DNA of 64,000 nt from positions 72,764-136,763 of the forward strand of contig JANNSO010000119.1 in the NCBI GenBank assembly GCA_031402655.1, written 5' to 3'. This DNA is from Spirochaetota bacterium (GTDB lineage: Bacteria > Spirochaetota > Spirochaetia > Treponematales > UBA12059). The translations under genes and the position numbers were made by a program. Position 1 is the stretch's first letter; the number at the start of each line of letters is the position of its first letter. Below the pieces are notes generated by a model. That model worked only from the letters and a program-made list of their open reading frames with translations, had not been told where the DNA came from and did not search any database. Positions 1 to 54,573 of the stretch are shown piece after piece.

Positions 1-303
1 GGTAAAGATCATGCCGTAGCCGTCGGTGGCGTACTGGCGTATGATGCGCTCGGCATCGGGGCCTTCGGGCACGTTTTCGATGAAGGCTGTCTCGACCTTG
101 CTGCCAAAAGCCGCTTCGACGGCCTTGCGTCCACGGTCATGCTCGTACGTCCATCCGAGGTCGCCCGGCGGTCCGATGTAAACGAACGCGATTTTAAGAG
201 CCTTGACGGCGGCCGGCGCGTCGGCGGGTTTGGCTGCCTTGGTACAGCCCGCGATGGCGACGACCATGGTCAGCGCCAGTAAAACGATAAGAATTTTCTT
301 CAT
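1..303 (-). CDS. BMP-family ABC-transporter substrate-binding lipoprotein, 5' part only (gene continues past the left edge)
   Basis: Own translation of the minus strand from ATG 303..301 gives MKKILIVLLALTMVVAIAGCTKAAKPADAPAAVKALKIAFVYIGPPGDLGWTYEHDRGRKAVEAAFGSKVETAFIENVPEGPDAERIIRQYATDGYGMIFT. It has a signal peptide with lipobox IAGC, then the V/IYxGPxGDxGW..HDxGR pattern I associate with BMP-family binding proteins. An AAAGGAG SD lies upstream. It is not in the ORF track because it is truncated. Confidence 0.7.
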   Translation of the reverse strand, partial: MKKILIVLLALTMVVAIAGCTKAAKPADAPAAVKALKIAFVYIGPPGDLGWTYEHDRGRKAVEAAFGSKVETAFIENVPEGPDAERIIRQYATDGYGMIFT

Positions 304-339
304 TGTAATGCTCCTTTTGTACGGAAATTCATCCTAGCT

Positions 340-34929: not shown

Positions 34930-36784
34930 CGATGATAACAACAAGCTTCCGCGCAAGCCGAATGCAAGTCCGCCCCGCGCGAATAAATTATCCCTGATTG
35001 TTTTTCTGGGTTTGATTAGCGCAACAGCAATTTTTCTTTTTGTCGACGGAAAGTCCGCCAAGAATATCCTCCCGTATTCCACCTTCCTTACTCATTTGAC
35101 CGAGGGAAACGTGGACTCCGTTCGAATCATCGATCAGATGACCATAGAGGGGAAACTTCGAGGAAAAACCGGCGAAAGCCAGGAATTCCGAACGCTGATA
35201 CCGTATGTGGATCTGGAACTTCTCAAGGAACTGCGATCTAAACAGGTAATAATCGAAGGTTCCCTAAGTTCCGCCAGTCCTTGGAGAATCCTGCTCGAGC
35301 TGCTTCCATGGGGATTCGGATTCTTTATTCTCTGGCTGATGTTCAGGCAGTTTCAGGGTAACAACAAGGCGTTTACCTTTGGCAAGAGCAAGGCCAAGCG
35401 ATATAACGAATCTGACAAGAAATTTACCTTCGCCGATGTAGCCGGTCAGGTAGAAGCCAAGTACGAATTGACCGAAGTCGTGGATTATCTCAAGAATCCG
35501 CAGAAATTCGTCAAGATGGGCGCCAGGATTCCCAAAGGCGTACTGCTTGTAGGCATGCCGGGAACGGGCAAGACCCTTCTTGCCAAGGCGGTAGCCGGCG
35601 AGGCAGCCGTGCCGTTCTTCCATATGTCCGGTTCGGACTTCGTGGAAATGTTCGTTGGCGTCGGAGCCAGCCGAGTGCGCGATCTATTCGAGCAGGGCAG
35701 GCGCAGCGCTCCGTGCATCATTTTTATAGACGAGCTTGATGCCGTAGGAAGAACGCGCGGAGCTGGCTACGGCGGAGGGCATGACGAGCGCGAGCAGACC
35801 CTGAACCAGATGCTCGTGGAGATGGACGGCTTCGATACCAAGGATGGTGTTATAATCATTGCCGCAACGAACCGGCCAGATGTCCTTGACCCCGCCTTGC
35901 TGCGCCCCGGCCGATTCGACAGGCAGGTGGTCGTTGCCATGCCCGACATACAGGAACGCGAGGACATACTCAAGATACACATGGTGAAGGTTCCTGTGGA
36001 CGCTGCCATCGATATTAAGAAAATAGCCCGCGCTACGCCGGGTATGAGCGGTGCCGATCTTGCGAATCTTGTTAACGAGGCCACTCTTTTCGCTATCAGG
36101 CGGGAAAAGCCCACGGTGGAAATGCAGGATTTCGAAGAGGCGCGCGATAAGCTGATAATGGGAGTCGCACGGGCTTCATTGGTGATTTCGGAAGAGGAAA
36201 AGCTGGCCACCGCCTACCACGAAGCCGGTCATGCGCTTTTGCACTATTACCTCAAGAACGCCGACCAGCTGCACAAAGTTACCATCGTTCCGCGTGGCCG
36301 GTCCCTTGGAGCGGCTTTCTCCCTGCCCGAGCGCGATGCGTATTCCCGCGGACGCGGCTGGATACGCGACAGGATAGTCATTATGTATGGCGGTTTTTCC
36401 GCGGAAAGCATCATTTATAATGAAACTACCACGGGAACCACGCAGGATATAAAGGAAGCCACCAATTTGGCCCACAAGATGGCCTGCGAGTGGGGTATGG
36501 CTGAGGATCTGGGACCTATCGCCTATGGTCAGGAAGACGAGCCCATATTCCTTGGCAAGGAAATTGCCAGGCATAAGGACTATTCCGAAGATACCGCCAA
36601 GCGCATAGACCATGCCGTTTTCAAGATTCTTGAGGAAGCGCGAAAGACGGCGTTTGATTTACTTACGAAATACCGGGATCAACTGGAACGTCTAGCTCAG
36701 GAGCTCATGCTGAAGGAGACCTTGCTTGATGAAGATATTACGGCAATGTTCGGGTTTAAAAGCAGATCGGGCAAGGAAGCCTGA
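34919..36784 (+). CDS. ftsH: ATP-dependent zinc metalloprotease FtsH
   Basis: 621 aa. Two TM segments, Walker [14 protein letters not shown], an SRH region, and the zinc site HEAGHAL. Confidence 0.96.
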
Positions 36785-36806
36785 TACAGTCTCCGCTCAA
36801 CGCAGA

Positions 36807-38771
36807 ATGGCCCTGAAAATCAGCGGCCGTTCTGTGTTTTTATTATTTCATTTCTGTGTATTATTTTCTTTTTTGCCTCTTCAGTCCTTCGCAGAAGGGT
36901 CGCCTAACGGCGCGCCTAACGGCGCGCCTAACGGCGAGAATCCTGGCGCTGATACCCGTAAGCGGGATGCTGCTCTTTCGCGAACTCTCCTTGAGGGTGC
37001 CAGAAACGCCATAAGCCTGGGATACATGCTCGAGGCAATCGAGCTTATCGATGAATCCATCGAATATTCTCCTGCCAATTCCGATGCGCTTTATCTTCGC
37101 GCCCTCTGCGGTCTGTCGCTGAAGGAGCCGCAGGCCCAACTGGGTCTCCTGCTCGAGGGCGCTCTCAGCGGGAATGAGTTTTTTTATTATGCCAGGGAAG
37201 ATGCCCTGCTGCTCTACAGTTCCTTTCTTGTGCATACACGGGACTATCACGATGCATTGCGTTTTCTTTCCGCTCTTCGCCATAGTCCAAAGCGGGACAG
37301 CCTCGAAGCCGAAGCCTTGCGACTTTCGGGAAATCCCGAAAAGGCAAGGGAATCCCTGCTCATGCTGATTGGCAGATATCCCTCCGAGGCCGCACTCTGC
37401 ATTCCCTGGCTATTTTCCCTGAACCATGAGACTCGATCGGCAGCCGATGCCAAACTTGTAGCGGAACTCTTCCGGCTTTTGCCGGGTATAAAGGAAAAGT
37501 CGCCGGATTTTCTGGCAGCACTGGTACCGTTTGCATCCACCCTTGAGGATTCGCGCTTTATGCTGCGGGAGTTTAGGGCTATGGGCGGCAGCAGTGCCGG
37601 ATCCACGGTCTTGTCGTTGAAATACGGTCTTGTTGCTGAAGCCGATGCAATTACAGAATTTTTTTCGGGTGTTTATCCGCTGTTTGCCGATGTGGTTCGC
37701 GATTTTTATGGTAATTTGGGAAGCGATCAAAGCCAGCAATCCTTTTTGAAAACATTCCTAGCGTTTTCGGGAACCATCGCCGCTGATGATAACAGAGATG
37801 GCATAGCGGATTTTCTGGTACAGTACGAATCCGGGCAAGCCCTATCGGCAATCGTTGATCAAAACCAGGACGATGTCGCCGAAATACGGGTGTTTTTTAC
37901 TGATGGCGTGCCTTCGCAGGCTAAATCGCGGAGCGTGTCGCAGGATGTCGAGTTAAGTTATGGACTATGGCCGTATCTTGCTACCGTTTCGTATACTTCC
38001 CCGCTCGGCGGGAAAATGTACAGCGTCAAGCCTTCGGCCCTGGCATACCGTATTCTCGATTTTGATGTTCTTGGTCGCTATCAGGGGCGGGCTGTCATGC
38101 TTTATGGCAATTCTGCGATTCCGCTGCTTCTCGAACAGCAGGTTTTGTCCCAAGCCGTTCATGTCAGCGAGAAAACACCCCGAAAAATTCAGACGGCTGA
38201 CCTGATAGACGGCATGCCCGTGCAATCCTGGTATTCATTGCATACGGGTATGGCTGCGAAGGTTTTTTATACCAATGGCATGCCGGAATCTGAACAGGTG
38301 GATTTGAATGGCGACGGTAGATTCGAAGGACGGAAATACTGGGCCTTGAATTCGGCCGGCGAATCGATTCCCGTCAGCATAGAGATAGATGCAAATGCAG
38401 ACGGCATTTACGAGTACCTTGAATCGCTTGTGGCTCCGTTTGAAAAAAGCTGGGATCTTGACGACAACGGCAGTATGGACTTGAAGCTTATTCCACAAGA
38501 CGAAGGCCACCGGCGATACGAATTCTCGAGTCGGCTCAATAGTACGGTTGACATTGTGCTCGTCTATGCCTCAGGCAGGATAAGCAAGGCGTTTCGCAAC
38601 GATATTTCAATATCGCTGGTACCCGATGCCGGTGGCAAAGTAATATGGCTTGGCAAAAAGCCTTTTGACTTTGGGGTGGAAGTGCCAAAACCCGGCTGGG
38701 GAGTCAGAGCCTCGCTCAGGTATTTCGTGCTTGCTGTCGGCGATCTGCTCTATGCCGAAGTTTTAGACTGA
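36807..38771 (+). CDS. large secreted hypothetical protein (TPR-like N-half, DxDxDG-type repeats in the C-half)
   Basis: Preferred start is MALKISGRSVFLLFHFCVLFSFLPLQSFA, after the ftsH stop. Features are an (A)PNG x3 repeat and recurring motifs DDNRDGIADF, DQNQDDVAEI, DLNGDGRFEG, DANADGIYEY and DLDDNGSMDL. Confidence 0.6.
   Translation: MALKISGRSVFLLFHFCVLFSFLPLQSFAEGSPNGAPNGAPNGENPGADTRKRDAALSRTLLEGARNAISLGYMLEAIELIDESIEYSPANSDALYLRALCGLSLKEPQAQLGLLLEGALSGNEFFYYAREDALLLYSSFLVHTRDYHDALRFLSALRHSPKRDSLEAEALRLSGNPEKARESLLMLIGRYPSEAALCIPWLFSLNHETRSAADAKLVAELFRLLPGIKEKSPDFLAALVPFASTLEDSRFMLREFRAMGGSSAGSTVLSLKYGLVAEADAITEFFSGVYPLFADVVRDFYGNLGSDQSQQSFLKTFLAFSGTIAADDNRDGIADFLVQYESGQALSAIVDQNQDDVAEIRVFFTDGVPSQAKSRSVSQDVELSYGLWPYLATVSYTSPLGGKMYSVKPSALAYRILDFDVLGRYQGRAVMLYGNSAIPLLLEQQVLSQAVHVSEKTPRKIQTADLIDGMPVQSWYSLHTGMAAKVFYTNGMPESEQVDLNGDGRFEGRKYWALNSAGESIPVSIEIDANADGIYEYLESLVAPFEKSWDLDDNGSMDLKLIPQDEGHRRYEFSSRLNSTVDIVLVYASGRISKAFRNDISISLVPDAGGKVIWLGKKPFDFGVEVPKPGWGVRASLRYFVLAVGDLLYAEVLD
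36901..36936 (+). repeat. perfect 12-nt tandem repeat x3 (in frame)
   Basis: CGCCTAACGGCG repeated three times head to tail, encoding the SPNGAPNGAPNG part of the protein. Confidence 0.9.
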
Positions 38772-38849: not shown

Positions 38850-39197
38850 ATGGGTAGTTCCGAGCTTCAAGTGAACCTTCCTTTATCTGGTGTGCTAAAT
38901 ATAGAAAATTCTGCTGAAACAGCCCTCCTGCTTTCCGATGCAATCAACAAATCCGAAAAGCTGGCAATAGATTTAAGCGGAGTCAGGGAGCTGGATCTGC
39001 CTGGTATCCAGCTTTTATATTCGGCAAGCCGGACCGCCGCCAACAAGGGCAGGTCGTTGGTCCTTACGGGGAGCATAGCTCCGGAGGCAATTCGCAAATT
39101 GCTGCATGCCGGCTTTATTCAAAATACCTGCAGCTCAGGCGAGGCTTTGATGGCCATGCTTCCCGATTTTTTTGCGGCAGGCAGTAAGACATGCTAG
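38850..39197 (+). CDS. STAS-domain protein (anti-sigma-antagonist fold), first gene of the che operon
   Basis: 115 aa. LAIDLSGVRELDLPGIQLLYSASRTAANKGRSLVLTG resembles SpoIIAA/STAS, but DLPG sits where phosphorylatable STAS proteins have DSSG. It overlaps the cheA start. Confidence 0.7.
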   Translation: MGSSELQVNLPLSGVLNIENSAETALLLSDAINKSEKLAIDLSGVRELDLPGIQLLYSASRTAANKGRSLVLTGSIAPEAIRKLLHAGFIQNTCSSGEALMAMLPDFFAAGSKTC

Positions 39198-41350
39198 ATA
39201 AATTCAAAGACGCATTTCGCGAAGAGGCTCAGGAACTCCTTGGGAATCTGGAAACCCTGCTTTTGGAGCTTGAGGTGGACAGTACGGACATGGAACTGAT
39301 CAATGCCGCTTTTCGGGCTGTTCATACCATAAAAGGCTCGGCAGGCATGTTTGGCTTCGAACGCATCAGCCGTTTTACCCACGATTTTGAGACGCTTTTG
39401 GACAGCTGCCGCTCCGGTGCCTGCACGGTGGACAAGCATCTCATCGACCTATCGCTCAGAGCACGCGACGTCATACGCGAAATGCTCACCGAAGAAGACA
39501 ATACGCTTCCATTCAGCGATGTAGCGCAGCGGCTGATGGGTGAATTTCGCCTCGCCATCAGTTCGTGCGCGGACGCGGTTCCGGATGCTGCGCCTGCCAG
39601 GCTGCCTGCAGAGGGGAGCCTGGCAGTCCAACCCATTCAGCCGGCAATGCCGAGAGAAATATTTACCGTGGAACCCAACGACGACTCCAGCGGAACATAC
39701 CGGATATTCTTTAAGCCGCCCCCGTCCATCTTTAAGAACGGCACTCGCGTTTTAAAGCTATTCGAGGAGCTTGCCGATCTTGGCGAACTTTCCGCGCATC
39801 CGCGCATGCGCGACCTTCCGTCTCTCGATGCGCTTGACCCGGAGCTCTGCTACGTCGCCTGGGATATTATTCTTACTACCAGTCAGGGAATTAACTCCAT
39901 CCAGGACGTGTTTATCTTTATCGATTGCGCCGCGGATTTGAAGATAGAGCGACTCGATAACCCCGACGAGCTGCTTCGCGATCGGCCCAAAAAGCTTGGG
40001 GAGATACTCGTGGAACGCGGCTTGATTCAGGCTGAAGCCCTGGGCATTGCATTGAAGTCCCAGCGGAAGCTCGGGGAAGTGCTCTTGGAAAAAAATATCG
40101 TGTCGCCGGGGGAGCTGGAATCGGCACTGGTCGAGCAGGCGCATTTAAAGCGCGCTCAGGAAAAGCAAAGCGAAACCGCAGGTTCAATTCGAGTCTCCAG
40201 CGAAAAGCTCGATCAGCTGGTCGATCTCGTAGGCGAAATGGTGACTCTGCAAGCCAGGCTGGCCCGAACTTCTTTGCAGTTGGGGGACACGGGATTATCC
40301 TCGATATCCGAGCAATTCGAGCGGCTTGTTTCCCAATTGCGGGATAACGCCATGAGCGTGCGCATGCTGCCCATCGGTTCTACCTTTAATAAATTTCGCA
40401 GGGTTGTGCGGGATCTTTCTGCGGAGCTTGGCAAGGAAGTGGAGTTATTGACAGAAGGAGCCGACACCGAGCTGGACAAAACCGTAATAGAGCGGCTCAA
40501 TGATCCCCTGGTACATATAATAAGGAACTCACTGGATCATGGAATCGAGAAGCCGCAAGACCGCATTGCCGCAGGGAAACCTTCGGGTGGAAAAATAACC
40601 CTCTCGGCCCAGCATTCGGGGGCTCATGTCGTGATAAGCGTTTCCGACGATGGAAAAGGCCTGGATATCGACGCTATTCGAGCCAAGGCGATAGAGCGCG
40701 GCATCCTGAGTGCCAACCAGGACCTCAGTGACGAGGATGCGTTCATGCTTATCTTCAGGCCTGGTTTTAGTACCGCAAAAAACGTTACCAGCGTTTCAGG
40801 CAGGGGCGTGGGCATGGATGTGGTGAAGCGAGAGATAGATTCGCTGGGCGGCATGGTTACTGTGGAATCGATCAAGGGCAAAGGTTCCAGGATTTTGCTT
40901 AAAATTCCGCTTACCCTGGCGATAATCGAAGGTCTGCTTGTGCGCATCGGCAATGAGTTTTTCGTGCTGCCCCTGTCTTCCGTGGAGGGCTGCGTCGAAC
41001 TTTCCCGGGACGAAAACGGCTCGGGCGAGAATGGCAGGATAATGCGCTACCGCGAAGAATTGCTGCCGTATATCGATCTGCGCGACTTTTTCTCCGTGCC
41101 GGGAATCGCTCCCGCGCTTTCCCAGGTTGTGGTCATCAATTCCCAGGGCAGCCATATGGGACTGGTCGTCGATAATGTTATCGGGGATTACCAGACCGTC
41201 ATCAAACCGCTTGGACGCATGTTCAAGGATGCTGAGGGCCTGTCGGGAGCCACGATACTGGGTGACGGCACCGTGGCGCTTATAGTAGACTTTAACGGCC
41301 TGGCAAACCATTCCCGCGCTTCGGGTAAAATTAAAGCGGGTACACAATGA
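39191..41350 (+). CDS. cheA: chemotaxis histidine kinase CheA with an inserted MshEN-like segment
   Basis: 719 aa. Hpt domain (AVHTIKGSAGMFG), a dimerisation region, the HATPase (DHGIEKP...GRGVGMDVV) and a C-terminal CheW-like domain. The extra segment at aa 268-316 is described in the findings. Confidence 0.93.
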   Translation: MLDKFKDAFREEAQELLGNLETLLLELEVDSTDMELINAAFRAVHTIKGSAGMFGFERISRFTHDFETLLDSCRSGACTVDKHLIDLSLRARDVIREMLTEEDNTLPFSDVAQRLMGEFRLAISSCADAVPDAAPARLPAEGSLAVQPIQPAMPREIFTVEPNDDSSGTYRIFFKPPPSIFKNGTRVLKLFEELADLGELSAHPRMRDLPSLDALDPELCYVAWDIILTTSQGINSIQDVFIFIDCAADLKIERLDNPDELLRDRPKKLGEILVERGLIQAEALGIALKSQRKLGEVLLEKNIVSPGELESALVEQAHLKRAQEKQSETAGSIRVSSEKLDQLVDLVGEMVTLQARLARTSLQLGDTGLSSISEQFERLVSQLRDNAMSVRMLPIGSTFNKFRRVVRDLSAELGKEVELLTEGADTELDKTVIERLNDPLVHIIRNSLDHGIEKPQDRIAAGKPSGGKITLSAQHSGAHVVISVSDDGKGLDIDAIRAKAIERGILSANQDLSDEDAFMLIFRPGFSTAKNVTSVSGRGVGMDVVKREIDSLGGMVTVESIKGKGSRILLKIPLTLAIIEGLLVRIGNEFFVLPLSSVEGCVELSRDENGSGENGRIMRYREELLPYIDLRDFFSVPGIAPALSQVVVINSQGSHMGLVVDNVIGDYQTVIKPLGRMFKDAEGLSGATILGDGTVALIVDFNGLANHSRASGKIKAGTQ

Positions 41351-42204
41351 GCATGGAGGAGGCCGGCGACCTCAGACATTATGAGGGTCTTTCTGACAGG
41401 GCTTTTAAGAAACTCGCGGAATATATCGAAGCCCAGCTCGGCATCCGCATGCCCGACGCAAAGCGGATAATGCTGGAGAGCCGCCTGCAGAAACGGCTGC
41501 GCATACTCGGACTTCCCGATTATGACGCATATCTGGACCATGTCTTTTCAGACAGCGACAATACCGAACTTGTGCAGATGATCGATGCAGTGACCACGAA
41601 CAAGACCGATTTTTTCAGGGAACCCGATCACTTCGATATACTTACTTCGCGTATCCTGCCCAAAGCCCTGTCGAATCCGGGCATGGGTAGACCTTTTTCC
41701 TTCTGGTCCGCCGGATGCGCAACGGGGGAAGAGCCCTATACCCTGGCCATGGTGCTTGAGGAATTTATTTTAACCCATCCGGGTTTTTCCTACCAAATAA
41801 TAGCATCGGACATTTCTACGCAAGCTTTGCAAAAGGCTGTAAACGCGATTTACCCAAGCGAGCGCGTAGACGTGGTTCCCCTGGCGCTGAAGCGGAAATA
41901 TCTTTTGCGGTCTAAGGATTCGCAGAAAGGCGATGTACGATTCAAGAAGGAAGTCCGGGAAAAAATTAAATTCATCCGCTTGAATTTCATGGATGACAGC
42001 TATCCGTTCGAAGGCGTATTCGACATGGTTTTTTGCAGGAATGTTATTATTTATTTTGACCGTGCAACCCAGGAGAAGATGCTGGGCCGTATTTGCAGGC
42101 ACCTGCGGCCGGGAGGCAACCTGTTTCTAGGGCATTCGGAAACGCTGACGGGCATGAGTCTGCCCTTGCGTTCCATAGCTCCCACTGTTTACGAAAAATT
42201 ATAG
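41347..42204 (+). CDS. cheR: chemotaxis protein methyltransferase CheR
   Basis: 285 aa. TNKTDFFREPDHF, and SAM-binding FWSAGCATGEEPYTLAM and FCRNVIIYFD. Confidence 0.92.
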   Translation: MSMEEAGDLRHYEGLSDRAFKKLAEYIEAQLGIRMPDAKRIMLESRLQKRLRILGLPDYDAYLDHVFSDSDNTELVQMIDAVTTNKTDFFREPDHFDILTSRILPKALSNPGMGRPFSFWSAGCATGEEPYTLAMVLEEFILTHPGFSYQIIASDISTQALQKAVNAIYPSERVDVVPLALKRKYLLRSKDSQKGDVRFKKEVREKIKFIRLNFMDDSYPFEGVFDMVFCRNVIIYFDRATQEKMLGRICRHLRPGGNLFLGHSETLTGMSLPLRSIAPTVYEKL

Positions 42205-42225: not shown

Positions 42226-43292
<1,067 letters not shown>

Positions 43293-43345: not shown

Positions 43346-43714
43346 ATGGGTAAAAAAATATTGGTTATTGATGATTCCGCCGCGATCCGGCAGAGCATTT
43401 CCTACATTCTCAACCAGGAAGGCTATGAAACCACCGAGGCCTGCGACGGTCTTGAGGGGCTGCAGAAGCTGGACGGTGTTGACCATCTCGACTGCATCAT
43501 AACCGATGTAAACATGCCCAATATGGACGGCATTACCTTTATACGCAAGGCACGGGAAAACGGCAAGTTCAAATTCGTCCCGATTCTGGTGCTTACCACG
43601 GAATCGCAGGGAGCTAAAATGAACGAGGGCAAGGATGCGGGTGCCACGGGCTGGATCGTAAAGCCGTTCAGCGCCGACAAATTATTGGCCGTGGTAAAAA
43701 AGGTAGCGGAATAG
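43346..43714 (+). CDS. cheY: chemotaxis response regulator CheY
   Basis: 122 aa single REC domain. ILVIDDS, ITDVNMPNMDG, LTTE and WIVKPF motifs. AGGAGG SD. Confidence 0.9.
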   Translation: MGKKILVIDDSAAIRQSISYILNQEGYETTEACDGLEGLQKLDGVDHLDCIITDVNMPNMDGITFIRKARENGKFKFVPILVLTTESQGAKMNEGKDAGATGWIVKPFSADKLLAVVKKVAE

Positions 43715-43716
43715 CC

Positions 43717-44217
43717 GTGGAAAACGCCAAGCCGCTTGCGGGAAGGTTTCTGACGTTTATGCTCGACGGCGAGATTTACGCCGTAACGGTGGAACGCGTC
43801 GAAGTAGTACTGGAAATGCAGACTATTACGAGGGTTCCCAATACGGATTCGCAGATATGCGGCGTAATCAACCATCGCGGATCGGTGATTCCCGTAGTCG
43901 ATTTGCGAATACGGTTCGGCCAGAGGCCATCGCTTCGCGACGAGAGCTGCTCGATAGTCGTTCTCCAGGTCAAGTACGAAGGCGAAACGCTGACGGCAGG
44001 CATGCTTGCGGACGGCGTGCGCGAGGTGCTGGACATAGAAACCGACGCGCTGGAATCCACGCCGAAAATCGGTGAGCGAAAAGGCGTGGCATCCGGTTCC
44101 GCCGCTTCATCCTGCGTAGCGGGGCTGGCCAGGATAGGTAAAGATTTTATTATAATTTTGGATATCGACGCTACGTACGCCAGAGGTTCCTCTATTTTGG
44201 AAACGGGCCATGCATAG
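43717..44217 (+). CDS. cheW: chemotaxis coupling protein CheW
   Basis: 166 aa, GTG start. FLTFMLDGEIYAVTVERVEVVLE...ICGVINHRGSVIPVVDLR is a typical CheW sequence. Confidence 0.88.
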   Translation: MENAKPLAGRFLTFMLDGEIYAVTVERVEVVLEMQTITRVPNTDSQICGVINHRGSVIPVVDLRIRFGQRPSLRDESCSIVVLQVKYEGETLTAGMLADGVREVLDIETDALESTPKIGERKGVASGSAASSCVAGLARIGKDFIIILDIDATYARGSSILETGHA

Positions 44218-50736: not shown

Positions 50737-51027
50737 ATGAGCGATAAAAGCTGCCCCTCCTGCGGCATGACGATAGAAAGCGTCAGGAAGCATGGCCTCA
50801 TAGGTTGTGAGTTTTGTCTCAGGGAATTCCGGTCCGAGATAGTGATGCAATTTCGCAGGAGCGGTCATGGATTCAACTATTCCGGCAAGATGCCGCTTTC
50901 CATAAAAAACAACGAATTGACGATGCTCGGGAAAGAACTTGAAAGCGCCGTAAACAACGATGATTTTGAACGCGCGGCCATTCTGCGCGACTCGATCAAT
51001 AAAATTCAGGCGGATGCGGCGAAATGA
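50737..51027 (+). CDS. mcsA: McsA-like protein (one Cys4 zinc finger plus a UVR motif)
   Basis: 96 aa. CPSCG...CEFC, then LGKELESAVNNDDFERAAILRDSINKI (UvrB/UvrC-type motif). It overlaps the mcsB-like gene by 4 nt. Confidence 0.7.
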   Translation: MSDKSCPSCGMTIESVRKHGLIGCEFCLREFRSEIVMQFRRSGHGFNYSGKMPLSIKNNELTMLGKELESAVNNDDFERAAILRDSINKIQADAAK

Positions 51028-52073
51028 GCAGGTTCTTCCAGCAGGCGCAAGATGATTCCTCCGTCCATCCTGGCGATTTCGATGTCGTGCTCCATTCCCG
51101 TGTCGGCCTTTCCCGGAACCTTTCGGCTTATCTCTTCGCACCCAGGATAGACCCCGAACAAAAACAAATTCTTCTTTCGGCGCTGCGAAAAAAACTGGTC
51201 GCATGCGGTCTTACTTTTTATAGGATACTCGAGCTTAGCGATGCACGGCGCGCTTTGCTCATAGACCGTGATTTTTTGCCTCGGGCTTTTGCGGTGGATG
51301 AGTCCAGCTCTTTGGCGCTTTCGGAAGATGAGCCTTTATGGGTGCTTTGCTTGGAAAGGGATCATGTCCTGGTGCAGGCGCAAAAAGATGGATTGGCGCT
51401 TCGGGAAGCCTGGAATTGCGTAAGGGAAACGGAGGAACGGCTTGGCTCCGATTGTGTATGGGCCTTTGATGCGGATTTTGGGTTTTTAACGAGCGATATA
51501 CAGAAGATCGGTACCGGATTATCGGCTTCGGTTTCGGTACACCTGCCTGCGCTTGAATTAGGCGGTTTTATAGAAAAAGCCTGCAAACAAGCTCTTGACG
51601 CCGGTTTTACCATCGGCGGAATGTATGGTTCGGGGGGCGTATCCGGTGGGGCACTGTACGAAATAGCGCTTCCCCAAGGATTTATGGACGCCGAAACAGT
51701 AGCGCTTGACAGGCTTGAACGAGCAACGAAATTATTGGTCGGGTATGAACGCAGCGCGCGAAATGAACTCCTGGAATCAGGATCCTGGGAGCTTTTCGAC
51801 TTTATTGGCAGGGCTGTAGGGCGCGCGCTGCACGCACACAGCGTAAGTTGGGACGAATGCGCGGAAATAGTATCCGGCATCAGGTTGGGTTTAAGCATAA
51901 AAGTGCTCGCGGGTATGGACGACAGCCGTGCCAGTGCCTTATTCTATAAAGTAAGGAATGTTCCTTTGTCAAAAGATCAAAATCAAAGGACGCCTGAACA
52001 TGTGACTCGCGCAGCCTTGCTGCGAAACTCTGTGCGTGGATTACATTTTTCCGAGAGGTACAAAGATGTTTAA
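51024..52073 (+). CDS. mcsB: McsB-like ATP:guanido phosphotransferase homologue (signature residues substituted)
   Basis: 349 aa. Colinear with B. subtilis McsB as I recall it: VVLHSRVGLSRNL, LERDHVLVQ, FGFLTSDIQKIGTGLSASVSVHLPAL and GGMYGSGG. Confidence 0.7.
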   Translation: MSRFFQQAQDDSSVHPGDFDVVLHSRVGLSRNLSAYLFAPRIDPEQKQILLSALRKKLVACGLTFYRILELSDARRALLIDRDFLPRAFAVDESSSLALSEDEPLWVLCLERDHVLVQAQKDGLALREAWNCVRETEERLGSDCVWAFDADFGFLTSDIQKIGTGLSASVSVHLPALELGGFIEKACKQALDAGFTIGGMYGSGGVSGGALYEIALPQGFMDAETVALDRLERATKLLVGYERSARNELLESGSWELFDFIGRAVGRALHAHSVSWDECAEIVSGIRLGLSIKVLAGMDDSRASALFYKVRNVPLSKDQNQRTPEHVTRAALLRNSVRGLHFSERYKDV

Positions 52074-54573
52074 AGGCTTGACCAAGAGAGCGCAGCGCAT
52101 CCTGACTATACTAGCCCAGGAAGAGGCAAAGCGCTTTCACGCATCCGAACTGAGTCCGGAGCATGTGCTTCTGGCAATTCTCCATTCCGTCGAAGGTTCG
52201 GGTTATAAGCTGGTCGAAACCCTGAAAATCGATATTCATGAGTTGGTTCTGGAGCTCGAGCGCAATGCCATAAGCCGCAAGGGCGGCTTTATCTTGGGCG
52301 ACGCGCCTTTATCGCGGAGGCTCAAGAGCATGCTCGAGGCCGCCGCCGAGGAAGCACGGCTTATGGAATGCGAATATATCGGCAGCGAGCATCTGGTCGT
52401 CGCATCCGCGCGGGAGACAGGTTCTGCCTTCGAGGGACTCCTTGGGCGCTACGGTATTTTTTACGAGCAGCTGCGCGGGGCACTTCGCCTGATAGTGGCT
52501 TCGGGCGAAGAGCGGACCACCAAAGCGCGCATAGTCATGCAGAATCAGATTCTGCCAGGCGCACAGCACAAAGCTGCGCAGGAGGCTCCCACGCCGCTCC
52601 TGAACGAACATTCCCGAGACCTGACGGCCCGGGCGCGGGAAGACAAAATAGACCCGGTGATCGGCCGTAACACCGAAACAACCCGGCTTATACGCATACT
52701 ATCCCGGCGCACCAAGAATAACCCCGTGCTTATCGGCGACCCCGGCGTCGGCAAGACCGCGATCGTAGAAGGCCTTGCCCTCCGCATCGCGCGCGCCGAG
52801 GTTCCTGTCGGGCTGCTCAATAAGCGGCTCATGGTACTCGACGTCGCCTCGATAGTGGCGGGAACGAAATACCGCGGCGAATTCGAGGAACGGCTAAAGC
52901 GCATCATGAAGGAAATCGCGGCGGCGGGCAATGTCATACTGTTCATCGACGAATTGCATACGATTATCGGGGCGGGCAGCGCCGAAGGCACGATCGACGC
53001 TTCCAATATGCTGAAACCCGCATTATCCCGTGGGGAACTGCAATGCATCGGAGCCACTACCCTGGACGAATACCGCAAGTACTTCGAGAAGGATGCCGCG
53101 CTGGAGCGGCGTTTCCAGACGGTGCTCGTCGAGGAACCCGACACGCTCATGAGCATACAGATACTCAACGGCATCAAGGAACGCTACGAGCGCTTCCATT
53201 GCGTGCGCTATTCACCCGAGGCCATCGAGGCATCGGTAGCATACGCCAAGCGCTACATCAGCGAGCGCTGCATGCCCGACAAGGCCATCGACGTGATGGA
53301 TGAGGCAGGCGCACGCAAGAAGATAGAAAATGTCGAGTCCATTCCCGAGCTTGGCGTAATAGAAGAAGAGATACGCAAGCTCACGGAAGAAAAGCTGGCC
53401 CTCGTTTCCACGCAGAATTACGAACGAGCCGCCCATATCCGCGACAGCGTCAAGGCGCTTCGCCTGGAACTCGATGAACTCAAGGCCAGGCAGCTGTCAC
53501 TGAACGGCAAAGGCGTGGCATGGGTTAACCATGACGACATCCGCGCAGTGGTGTCCGAAATTACGGGGATTCCCCTGGAACGGATAGCCGAAGGCGAGTC
53601 GGGCCGATTGATCAACATGGAAAGCGAACTGCACAAGAAAATAGTAGGGCAAGACGCGGCGGTAGAGGCTTTGGCCCAGGCCGTACGACGTGCGCGCGCA
53701 GGCATCGGCGACGCCAAACGGCCATTGGGGTCGTTTATCTTTTTGGGACCCACCGGAGTCGGCAAGACATTGCTGGCAAAAACCCTGGCAGAAACGCTTT
53801 TTGGAAGCCAGGATGCGCTTATTCGCGTGGATATGTCCGATTTTATGGAGAAACACAACGCATCCCGCCTCGTGGGGGCGCCGCCGGGCTACGTAGGCTA
53901 CGACGAGGGCGGAATGCTAACCGAGCGCGTGCGCCGCAAGCCATACAGCGTTGTGCTTTTCGACGAGATAGAAAAAGCCCATCCGGACGTATTCAACCTG
54001 CTGCTGCAGCTTCTCGAAGAGGGGGAGCTGCGCGATAACCTGGGCCACGTCGTGTCGTTCCGCAACTGCGTGATTATAATGACCAGCAACGCCGGCACAA
54101 GGGATATAACCCGGGGCACGAGGCTGGGATTCGGAGCCGAGGCATTCCGTTTCGATTACCAGAGCGTCAAGACGGCAGCCCTTGCGGAGCTCAAGCGCAT
54201 CTTCAACCCGGAGTTCATAAACCGGGTGGACGAGCTCGTGGTATTCCACCCCCTGAATAAAGACCAGGTAACCAGCGTCCTCCAATTGGAGCTCAACGGC
54301 CTGCGTCAGAGGCTCGCGGAGCGGGGAGTCTCCCTGGATCTGGACCGCAAGGCTACCGAGCAGCTGGTGGAAAAAGGCTATGATGCCGCTTACGGAGCCC
54401 GCCCGATGCGGAGGCTCATTACCAAGGAGCTCGAGGATCCGATAGCCACATTCATGGTGTCAGGCGAATGTCCGCCAGGGGCCACGATAAAAGTCCGGCT
54501 CAAGGATGACGCCCTGAGCCTGAAGGTTAGCATGCCTTCCAAAAAGGTCGATGACGAAGTAGCCAAGACTTGA
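52066..54573 (+). CDS. clpC: ATP-dependent Clp protease ATP-binding subunit ClpC
   Basis: Start is [24 protein letters not shown] (Clp_N repeats). There are two AAA+ modules ([16 protein letters not shown]) with a UVR motif between them. Confidence 0.93.

Follow-up and report, generated by a model that had tools for sequence, protein, structure and literature searches.

MshEN domains that bind cyclic di-GMP (c-di-GMP) were described by Wang et al. (2016, Nat Commun 7:12481; PMC5013675), and the main text of that study already names the histidine kinase CheA among the MshEN partners. A protein labeled 'CheA_Aerve' is drawn and aligned in its Supplementary Fig. 3, and a CheA fragment from Aeromonas veronii (residues 261–390) binds c-di-GMP with a dissociation constant (KD) of 2.6 µM (Supplementary Table 6). 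The same paper places CheA in a separate class of proteins described as 'MshEN_N only, no T2SSE_N1 domain', reports that MshEN_N alone binds c-di-GMP 1:1 with a KD of 0.35 µM and that the ligand stabilizes the bundle, and gives the taxonomic range of CheA-MshEN as Actinobacteria and Proteobacteria. Here we describe a cheA gene in a 64,000-nucleotide stretch of DNA (referred to as the window) from a Spirochaetota bacterium (assembly GCA_031402655.1, contig JANNSO010000119.1, positions 72,764–136,763 of the forward strand), the product of which contains two adjacent MshEN-type half-motifs that probably form a c-di-GMP-binding module. An earlier note on this DNA, made from the sequence alone, had taken this architecture to be undescribed, a claim that the 2016 study overturns, and NCBI annotation models also already recognize an MshE-related motif (NF053729). 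In the open literature, we found no functional follow-up of a c-di-GMP effect on any CheA, and the study of Wang et al. was the sole relevant work. In a 2026 census of Leptospira, the only MshEN found was of the GspE type.

Translation of positions 39,992–40,138 of the forward strand gives KLGEILVERGLIQAEALGIALKSQRKLGEVLLEKNIVSPGELESALVEQ, which corresponds to CheA residues 268–316. The earlier note had read this segment as KLGEILVERGLIQAEALGIALKSQ-R-KLGEVLLEKNIVSPGELESALVEQ, which is exact, and it had correctly pointed out both the one-residue spacer (R292) and the asparagine in the place of a glycine in the second half (N302, position 10). Residues 268–291 and 293–316 correspond to the two 24-residue copies of the canonical motif RLGxx(L/V/I)(L/V/I)xxG(L/V/I)(L/V/I)xxxxLxxxLxxQ. 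The strict half-motif occurs twice in all six frames of the window, with both occurrences located here and adjacent to each other, and it did not occur in 200 amino-acid shuffles. The relaxed motif of Wang et al. has a single match in the window (half I; 0.165 expected). The spacer of one residue, instead of approximately five, results in a domain of 49 residues instead of 53.

Sequence comparisons establish that the segment belongs to the MshEN family. Residues 268–316 align with positions 1–53 of the 53-position NCBIfam model NF053729.1 (cyclic di-GMP-binding, MshE-related), with a score of 40.2 bits for the whole protein (the cut-off is 38) and 45.7 bits for a 76-residue segment. Matches were also obtained with the models of the c-di-GMP-activated glycosyltransferase NfrB and of its paralogue, in both cases by way of their MshEN regions. 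When the PDB was searched with phmmer, Thermus thermophilus PilF was found with an E-value of 1.9e-8 (its c-di-GMP-binding GSPII-B domain with ∼1e-3) and Vibrio cholerae MshE (5HTL) with 0.015; the significant matches, and most of the 19 matches up to E = 10, are PilF, GSPII domains, MshE 5HTL and PilB N-domains. The earlier note had proposed a match to Pfam T2SSE_N (PF05157) as a check, and none was found at E ≤ 10 for either the full-length CheA or the 76-residue segment, the Pfam scans returning only weak matches to DUF4388 (0.004) and FumaraseC_C. This null result is expected and is no refutation, because MshEN_N-only proteins are devoid of the part that is mostly covered by the Pfam model, and the NCBIfam model does match.

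The predicted fold is in agreement with the sequence matches. An AlphaFold2 (AF2) model of residues 262–326, calculated with 61 homologous segments and without ligand, comprises four helices with a mean predicted local distance difference test score (pLDDT) of 92.3. In a Foldseek comparison with the PDB, ranks 1–11 were all c-di-GMP-bound MshEN domains (9glg, 5htl, 8pdk and others), with probabilities of 0.99–1.00 and template modeling scores, TM(query), of 0.68–0.75. The ten crystal-structure matches superpose with a root-mean-square deviation (rmsd) of 1.0–2.2 Å over 54–58 columns (most at 1.0–1.5 Å, with c-di-GMP-bound MshE and PilF at 1.0–1.4 Å) and 31–41% identity, and the nuclear magnetic resonance model 8pkz superposes at 3.9 Å. 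Below rank 11, PilB N-domains were found, followed by noise. The superposition on MshE that the earlier note had suggested gives a predicted four-helix bundle with an rmsd of 1.0 Å to 5HTL. The structural reading of the note is supported by NF053729.1, the PDB matches and the AF2/Foldseek comparison: a pair of MshEN-type half-motifs follows the P1/P2 region of CheA and precedes its dimerization domain. On the evidence of sequence and, for the fold, of prediction, residues 268–316 are a compact MshEN_N, that is a four-helix module with two half-motifs located between the P2-like domain and P3; in the ATPases MshE, PilB and PilF, this type of module accommodates a single c-di-GMP. The contrary view, that the segment is an ordinary helical P2–P3 linker, or a stretch by which the P3 coiled coil is lengthened at its N-terminal end, and resembles MshEN by chance, could draw on the missing T2SSE_N match and on the frequent occurrence of Leu-rich amphipathic helices beside P3, but it is scarcely credible when set against a curated hidden Markov model (HMM) match above cut-off, PDB sequence and fold matches that are MshEN domains, two invariant glycines and an invariant glutamine at motif positions, and E. 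coli CheA, which does not align over residues 268–304 of the spirochaete protein. In practice, it is refuted by the curated HMM, the shuffles and the Foldseek ranking.

The residue classes that contact the ligand in MshE are retained in CheA. In half I, R9, L10 and G11 of MshE correspond to K268, L269 and G270, and L25, L29 and Q32 correspond to L284, L288 and Q291. In half II, R38, L39 and G40 correspond to K293, L294 and G295, and L54, L58 and Q61 correspond to L309, L313 and Q316. Wang et al. (PMC5013675) attributed the loss of binding in XpsE to the changes G11V, I19R, L29R, R38G, G40L, L54H, L58C and Q61V; in a comparison with this list, none of these substitutions was found in CheA residues 268–316. 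Lysine at motif position 1 is permitted by their relaxed motif, and it is also native in PilF GSPII-B (K167), which was crystallized with c-di-GMP. The turn glycine at position 10 (G18 and G47 in MshE) is kept as G277 in half I. In half II, it is replaced by N302, and G47 was described as needed for the α3–α4 turn (PMC5013675); despite N302, the turn of half II is still predicted by AF2 with high confidence. Wang et al. (PMC5013675) do not describe the spacer as contacting the ligand, and its length is not strictly defining, because Aeromonas CheA with a nine-residue spacer still binds.

Conservation was analyzed at two evolutionary distances. All of the 120 closest homologues are CheAs from spirochaetes, with 56–87% identity (the alignment comprises 121 sequences), annotated as Spirochaetota, Rectinemataceae or Treponema, and the double motif with a one-residue spacer is present in all 120. 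Five residues are invariant in the 121 sequences (G270, G295, L298, L313 and Q316), and within half I, G277, L288 and Q291 are found in 113, 115 and 107 sequences, respectively. The spacer residue is always K, R or H. At position 10 of half II, the spirochaete clade most often has K (70), followed by N (19), H (16) and G (7), and glycine occupies this position in 56 of the 80 cross-phylum loci. The latter were retrieved for analysis from at least 390 confirmed loci, which were found by scanning a single genome of each GTDB species for the pattern. In all 80, the match lies inside a CheA-like open reading frame (ORF), at approximately residues 230–300 in the complete ones; these ORFs are mostly ∼700 residues long, some ending at a contig edge, and 65 of them show the full P1-P2-MshEN-P3-P4-P5 order, the others being cut or partly detected. 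The retrieved loci come from Treponemataceae, Geobacteraceae (Geomonas, Geotalea), Syntrophobacteraceae, Smithella, Desulfovibrionaceae, Nitrospirota (including magnetotactic lineages), Brocadia, Seleniivibrio and Magnetospirillum. Across the 80 loci, conservation is higher at motif positions than at 'x' positions (Mann–Whitney p 3.5e-4, calculated for positions that were not used for retrieval). As judged from the aligned sequences, the ligand-contact motif positions are under purifying selection in both the 121 close homologues and the 80 CheAs from other phyla.

The short spacer is a property of this group of kinases. A period of 25 residues, equivalent to a one-residue spacer, was observed in all 80 retrieved CheA loci. 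For the background, 1.84 billion representative proteins were searched by HMMER with a profile of the segment, which gave 15,336 matches, and the best 149 non-CheA proteins were used. Among the 216 adjacent pairs of half-motifs in these proteins, spacers of five residues dominate (89 pairs), followed by six (34), seven (20) and four (15), and a one-residue spacer occurs once. Since it is kept in all sampled CheAs and is rare elsewhere, the one-residue spacer is a class trait of the CheA-embedded MshEN_N and not a local accident. The top 150 of the 15,336 matches are dominated by proteins with 3–10 MshEN repeats; the strongest matches are proteins of 400–1200 residues with 5–10 tandem MshEN_N-like stretches. 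A separate observation concerns position 11 of half I, which is canonically hydrophobic and is Asp ('ERGDL/I') in 53 of the 80 loci, in non-spirochaete CheAs. The equivalent position is changed in non-binding XpsE (I19R), and the CheA of the window has Leu. Because of this difference, binding competence may vary between clades of the compact CheA class.

These data bear on whether the module binds a nucleotide at all. It could be a degenerate MshEN_N fold that separates P2 from P3 as a rigid spacer or serves there as a docking module, for instance for STAS or another array component, and precedents exist in the XpsE N-domain, which does not bind c-di-GMP, and the Xanthomonas PilB N-domain, which docks PilZ. 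The unusually short spacer, N302 in the place of the turn glycine and the Asp at position 11 of half I in other clades would all fit such a loss of function, as would the tight linkage of STAS to this CheA type, and Wang et al. cautioned that loss of binding is probable for many MshEN domains (PMC5013675). Complexes of the X. citri PilB N-domain with PilZ are also the next-best structures in the Foldseek comparison (ranks 12–15), but their TM(query) values of 0.58–0.59 are lower than those of the nucleotide-bound domains. Furthermore, the strongest constraint falls on positions that are in contact with c-di-GMP in 5HTL (G3 in each half as well as L21 and Q24 in half II, all invariant), the XpsE changes are absent, and one CheA-embedded MshEN_N, from Aeromonas veronii, does bind c-di-GMP. 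We therefore consider a non-binding module unlikely.

A second alternative retains binding and changes the ligand, which would be another physiological dinucleotide such as 3′3′-cyclic GMP-AMP (cGAMP), perhaps especially in the Geobacter and Desulfobacterota members. Geobacteraceae use cGAMP signaling, and many of the compact-domain CheA loci come from this family. The changed spacer and turn could retune specificity, and the MshEN_N of V. cholerae binds cGAMP measurably (KD 3.3e-4 M), but ∼660-fold more weakly than c-di-GMP. The motif is symmetric, its two halves both being of the guanine type, with the backbone amides of G3 reading O6/N7, and the sole CheA that has been assayed, that of Aeromonas, bound c-di-GMP. 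A ligand other than c-di-GMP is thus improbable.

The best overall explanation, which we regard as probable while well short of certain, is that the compact MshEN_N of this CheA binds c-di-GMP and that the c-di-GMP level constitutes a second input to the pathway. By analogy with the Aeromonas veronii fragment, the affinity would be expected to lie in the low-micromolar range. An input to the chemosensory pathway that would be independent of methyl-accepting chemotaxis proteins (MCPs), as suggested in the earlier note, is plausible. Several points weigh against this explanation. The CheA for which binding was measured has a nine-residue spacer and MshE has one of five residues, against a single residue here, a length seldom found outside the CheA group; in half II, the turn glycine is replaced not only in this CheA but also, by K, N or H, in the majority of its spirochaete homologues. 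To these are added the Pfam null, a structural comparison that used a ligand-free model of the segment, and Foldseek E-values that are weak (0.07–0.3), because the domain has only ∼55 residues, although the ranking is unambiguous. In addition, no GGDEF, HD-GYP or PilZ motifs were found in the 64-kb window, which gives no local link to c-di-GMP metabolism; EAL-like matches in the window are short and non-specific, and Pfam analysis of 40 larger ORFs in the window identified housekeeping genes only. Finally, the effect on the kinase is purely what we infer from the architecture, and its sign is not predictable.

The domain layout of the kinase suggests how c-di-GMP binding could be transmitted (Table 1). 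The ORF matches the NCBIfam CheA equivalog model (E 4.8e-139) and PDB structures of E. coli and T. maritima CheA with E-values up to 4e-121 (E. coli 6s1k), and its Hpt, H-kinase_dim, HATPase_c and CheW domains occur in order, each above the Pfam gathering threshold. The phospho-acceptor His45 lies in an HTIKGS motif of P1 and is invariant in 61 homologues. For residues 168–254, neither a Pfam match nor a PDB sequence match was found, and the domain is assigned as P2-like by its position and predicted fold class; phmmer recovered this segment in 77 of 80 CheA ORFs from other genomes. In the full-length AF2 model (mean pLDDT 83), helix 4 of the bundle extends ∼14 residues past the final motif Gln. 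In the homologue alignment, H318 and K320 are nearly invariant, columns 326–331 are variable or gapped, and the hinge between helix 4 and the dimerization helix is short, variable and composed of Gly, Ser, Ala or Thr. In the mechanism that we propose, c-di-GMP would bind the bundle and order or rigidify it. Because helix 4 runs on for ∼14 residues and is followed by a six-residue hinge to P3, the rigid bundle would tether or position the P1/P2 arm differently relative to the P3–P4 core, which would in turn change autophosphorylation or phosphotransfer. The STAS-CheA-CheR-CheB-CheY-CheW-(REC-HK) pathway would then receive the intracellular c-di-GMP level as its second input.

Table 1. Features of the cheA locus (positions in the window; residues of CheA)
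Feature	Residues	Positions	Strand	Basis or remark
STAS-domain gene, anti-sigma-antagonist type		38850–39197	+	Pfam STAS_2 7.6e-12; overlaps cheA start by 7 nt
cheA		39191–41350	+	719-residue ORF; P1(Hpt) - linker - P2-like - MshEN_N - P3 - P4 - P5
P1 / Hpt	7–101	39209–39493	+	Pfam Hpt 7.2e-17
P1, five helices	2–128			full-length AF2
Disordered linker	130–163			full-length AF2
P2-like alpha/beta domain	168–254	39692–39952	+	secondary structure and pLDDT, full-length AF2
MshEN half-motif I	268–291	39992–40063	+	KLGEILVERGLIQAEALGIALKSQ; all motif positions filled, K for R at position 1
MshEN_N helix 1	269–275			full-length AF2
MshEN_N helix 2	281–289			full-length AF2
One-residue spacer	R292	40064–40066	+
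MshEN half-motif II	293–316	40067–40138	+	KLGEVLLEKNIVSPGELESALVEQ; K for R at position 1, N302 for turn glycine at position 10
MshEN_N helix 3	294–300			full-length AF2
MshEN_N helix 4	306–330			full-length AF2
Helix α4 extension, then low-confidence hinge into P3	to 330; 331–336	40139–40198	+	full-length AF2; pLDDT <50 at 331–333
P3 dimerization domain	332–390	40184–40360	+	Pfam H-kinase_dim 2.3e-12
P3	337–391			full-length AF2; first helix 337–364; P4 and P5 are the remainder
P4 kinase (HATPase_c) and P5 (CheW-like)	438–575; 580–707	40502–41311	+	Pfam; PDB CheA P3–P5 structures
cheR		41347–42204	+	Pfam
cheB, frameshift-split		42226–43292	+	Pfam
cheY		43346–43714	+	Pfam
cheW		43717–44217	+	Pfam
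REC-HisKA-HATPase hybrid kinase, 641 residues		44210–46135	+	Pfam
REC-HisKA-HATPase hybrid kinase, 489 residues		46573–48042	+	Pfam

The gene cluster has the order STAS - cheA - cheR - cheB - cheY - cheW - REC/HisKA/HATPase - (REC) - REC/HisKA/HATPase. The same order is found in the closest relative (GCA_964485395.1, CheA 87% identical), with a 136-residue REC gene between the two hybrid kinases. Pfam analysis of the cluster ORFs identified no MCP, cheD or phosphatase genes. Since two hybrid kinases directly follow cheW and no MCP gene is present, the hybrid kinases are probably a downstream phosphorelay, and the output of the pathway is probably this phosphorelay and not the flagellar motor. 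The ∼260 C-terminal residues of the 641-residue hybrid kinase have no Pfam match. The cheB gene is interrupted near 42985–42996 (∼42988), with one ORF at 42226–43005 (REC and the first half of the methylesterase) and another at 42996–43292 (the second half), and insertion of a single base into 'gca gg|tac tat gtg' would repair the frame. In homologous loci, including that of the closest relative, cheB is a single gene of ∼355–360 codons, and the split here reflects either a genuine pseudogene or an indel that arose during assembly in a run of G.

A STAS gene is located within 1.5 kb upstream of cheA in 46 of the 69 loci with enough flank, a conserved placement that is shared by Spirochaetota, Desulfobacterota, Nitrospirota and Brocadia, sometimes with cheY between STAS and cheA. 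The usual order in the other phyla is STAS - cheY - cheA - cheW - cheR - cheB. The order FtsH - TPR protein - STAS - cheA is shared with five loci of Treponemataceae and other Spirochaetota, including that of the closest relative. In the window, the protein between ftsH and the STAS gene (681 residues, 36726–38771) has a TTG start and only a weak TPR match. Taken as a whole, the distribution leads to a broader and more tentative proposal, which may be correct although we would not count on it: the one-residue-spacer MshEN_N would be the signature of a chemosensory class that spans phyla, usually with a translationally coupled STAS gene upstream and with a non-flagellar, phosphorelay-type output, in which c-di-GMP or another cyclic dinucleotide gates CheA through the helix that leads into P3. 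This class may comprise members in Spirochaetota, Desulfobacterota, Nitrospirota, Brocadia, Deferribacterota and Magnetospirillum. Elsewhere in the window, positions 51024–54573 encode an ATP:guanido phosphotransferase of the McsB-like protein arginine kinase family and, after it, a double-AAA+ chaperone of the ClpC/ClpB type that contains Clp_N and UVR motifs; such a pair is most familiar from Firmicutes.

Cross-talk between c-di-GMP and chemotaxis is known to proceed through PilZ adaptors (YcgR, MapZ and PlzC), PilZ-containing receptors and CheY-like proteins. If our explanation is correct, a sensor inside the kinase would be a fourth and more direct route, which would provide an array input that is independent of receptors. 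Such a kinase-embedded route was proposed in 2016 from domain architecture and one isothermal titration calorimetry measurement. The locus described here indicates that the CheA-embedded module is under strong selection, has a far wider range than listed in 2016, and possesses its own conserved geometry (the one-residue spacer) and a conserved gene partner (STAS). It leaves the conceptual picture unchanged and provides experimenters with a well-defined family and clear mutant designs.

Among described proteins, the one that the segment resembles most closely, by sequence as well as by fold, is T. thermophilus PilF GSPII-B (8PDK, 9GLG and 8PFA), which was Foldseek rank 1 with 38–41% identity, the phmmer E-value of 1.9e-8 referring to full-length PilF. 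PilF differs in being an ATPase for pilus extension, in having three GSPII domains in tandem and in its normal five-residue spacer. V. cholerae MshE (5HTL) shares the two 24-residue half-motifs and the four-helix bundle (rmsd 1.0 Å, TM(query) 0.75, 34% identity). However, it has a five-residue spacer and a domain of 53 residues versus 49, its G47 corresponds to N302 and its position 1 changes from R to K in CheA, and it also has an MshEN_C (T2SSE_N1) subdomain, and what it regulates is a secretion/pilus ATPase and not a histidine kinase. At the level of the gene cluster, the closest described system is the stage 1 F7 chemosensory system, which comprises STAS, cheY, cheA, two cheW, aer2-like MCP, cheR, cheD, cheB, mcpA-like MCP, STAS and serine phosphatase genes (Ortega et al. 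2020, Nat Commun 11:2041; PMC7184735). When gene order alone is compared, its start, STAS - cheY - cheA - cheW ... cheR ... cheB, is like that of most non-spirochaete MshEN_N-type loci. Ortega et al. (PMC7184735) make no mention of c-di-GMP or MshE. The spirochaete cluster differs from stage 1 F7 in having no cheY between STAS and cheA and no MCP, cheD or serine phosphatase gene nearby, and in ending in two REC-histidine-kinase hybrids. The CheA of Aeromonas veronii (EKB11881) shares the architecture in that it also contains MshEN_N only, without T2SSE_N1/MshEN_C, at approximately residues 260–340 and directly before P3. It has a nine-residue spacer and a first half that begins with MLG, whereas the spirochaete CheA has a one-residue spacer, KLG in both halves and no turn glycine in half II. 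What is new relative to Wang et al. (2016) is the Spirochaetota lineage together with several further phyla, the conserved one-residue spacer, the finding that the spirochaete clade has lost the turn glycine of half II, and the conserved STAS partner.

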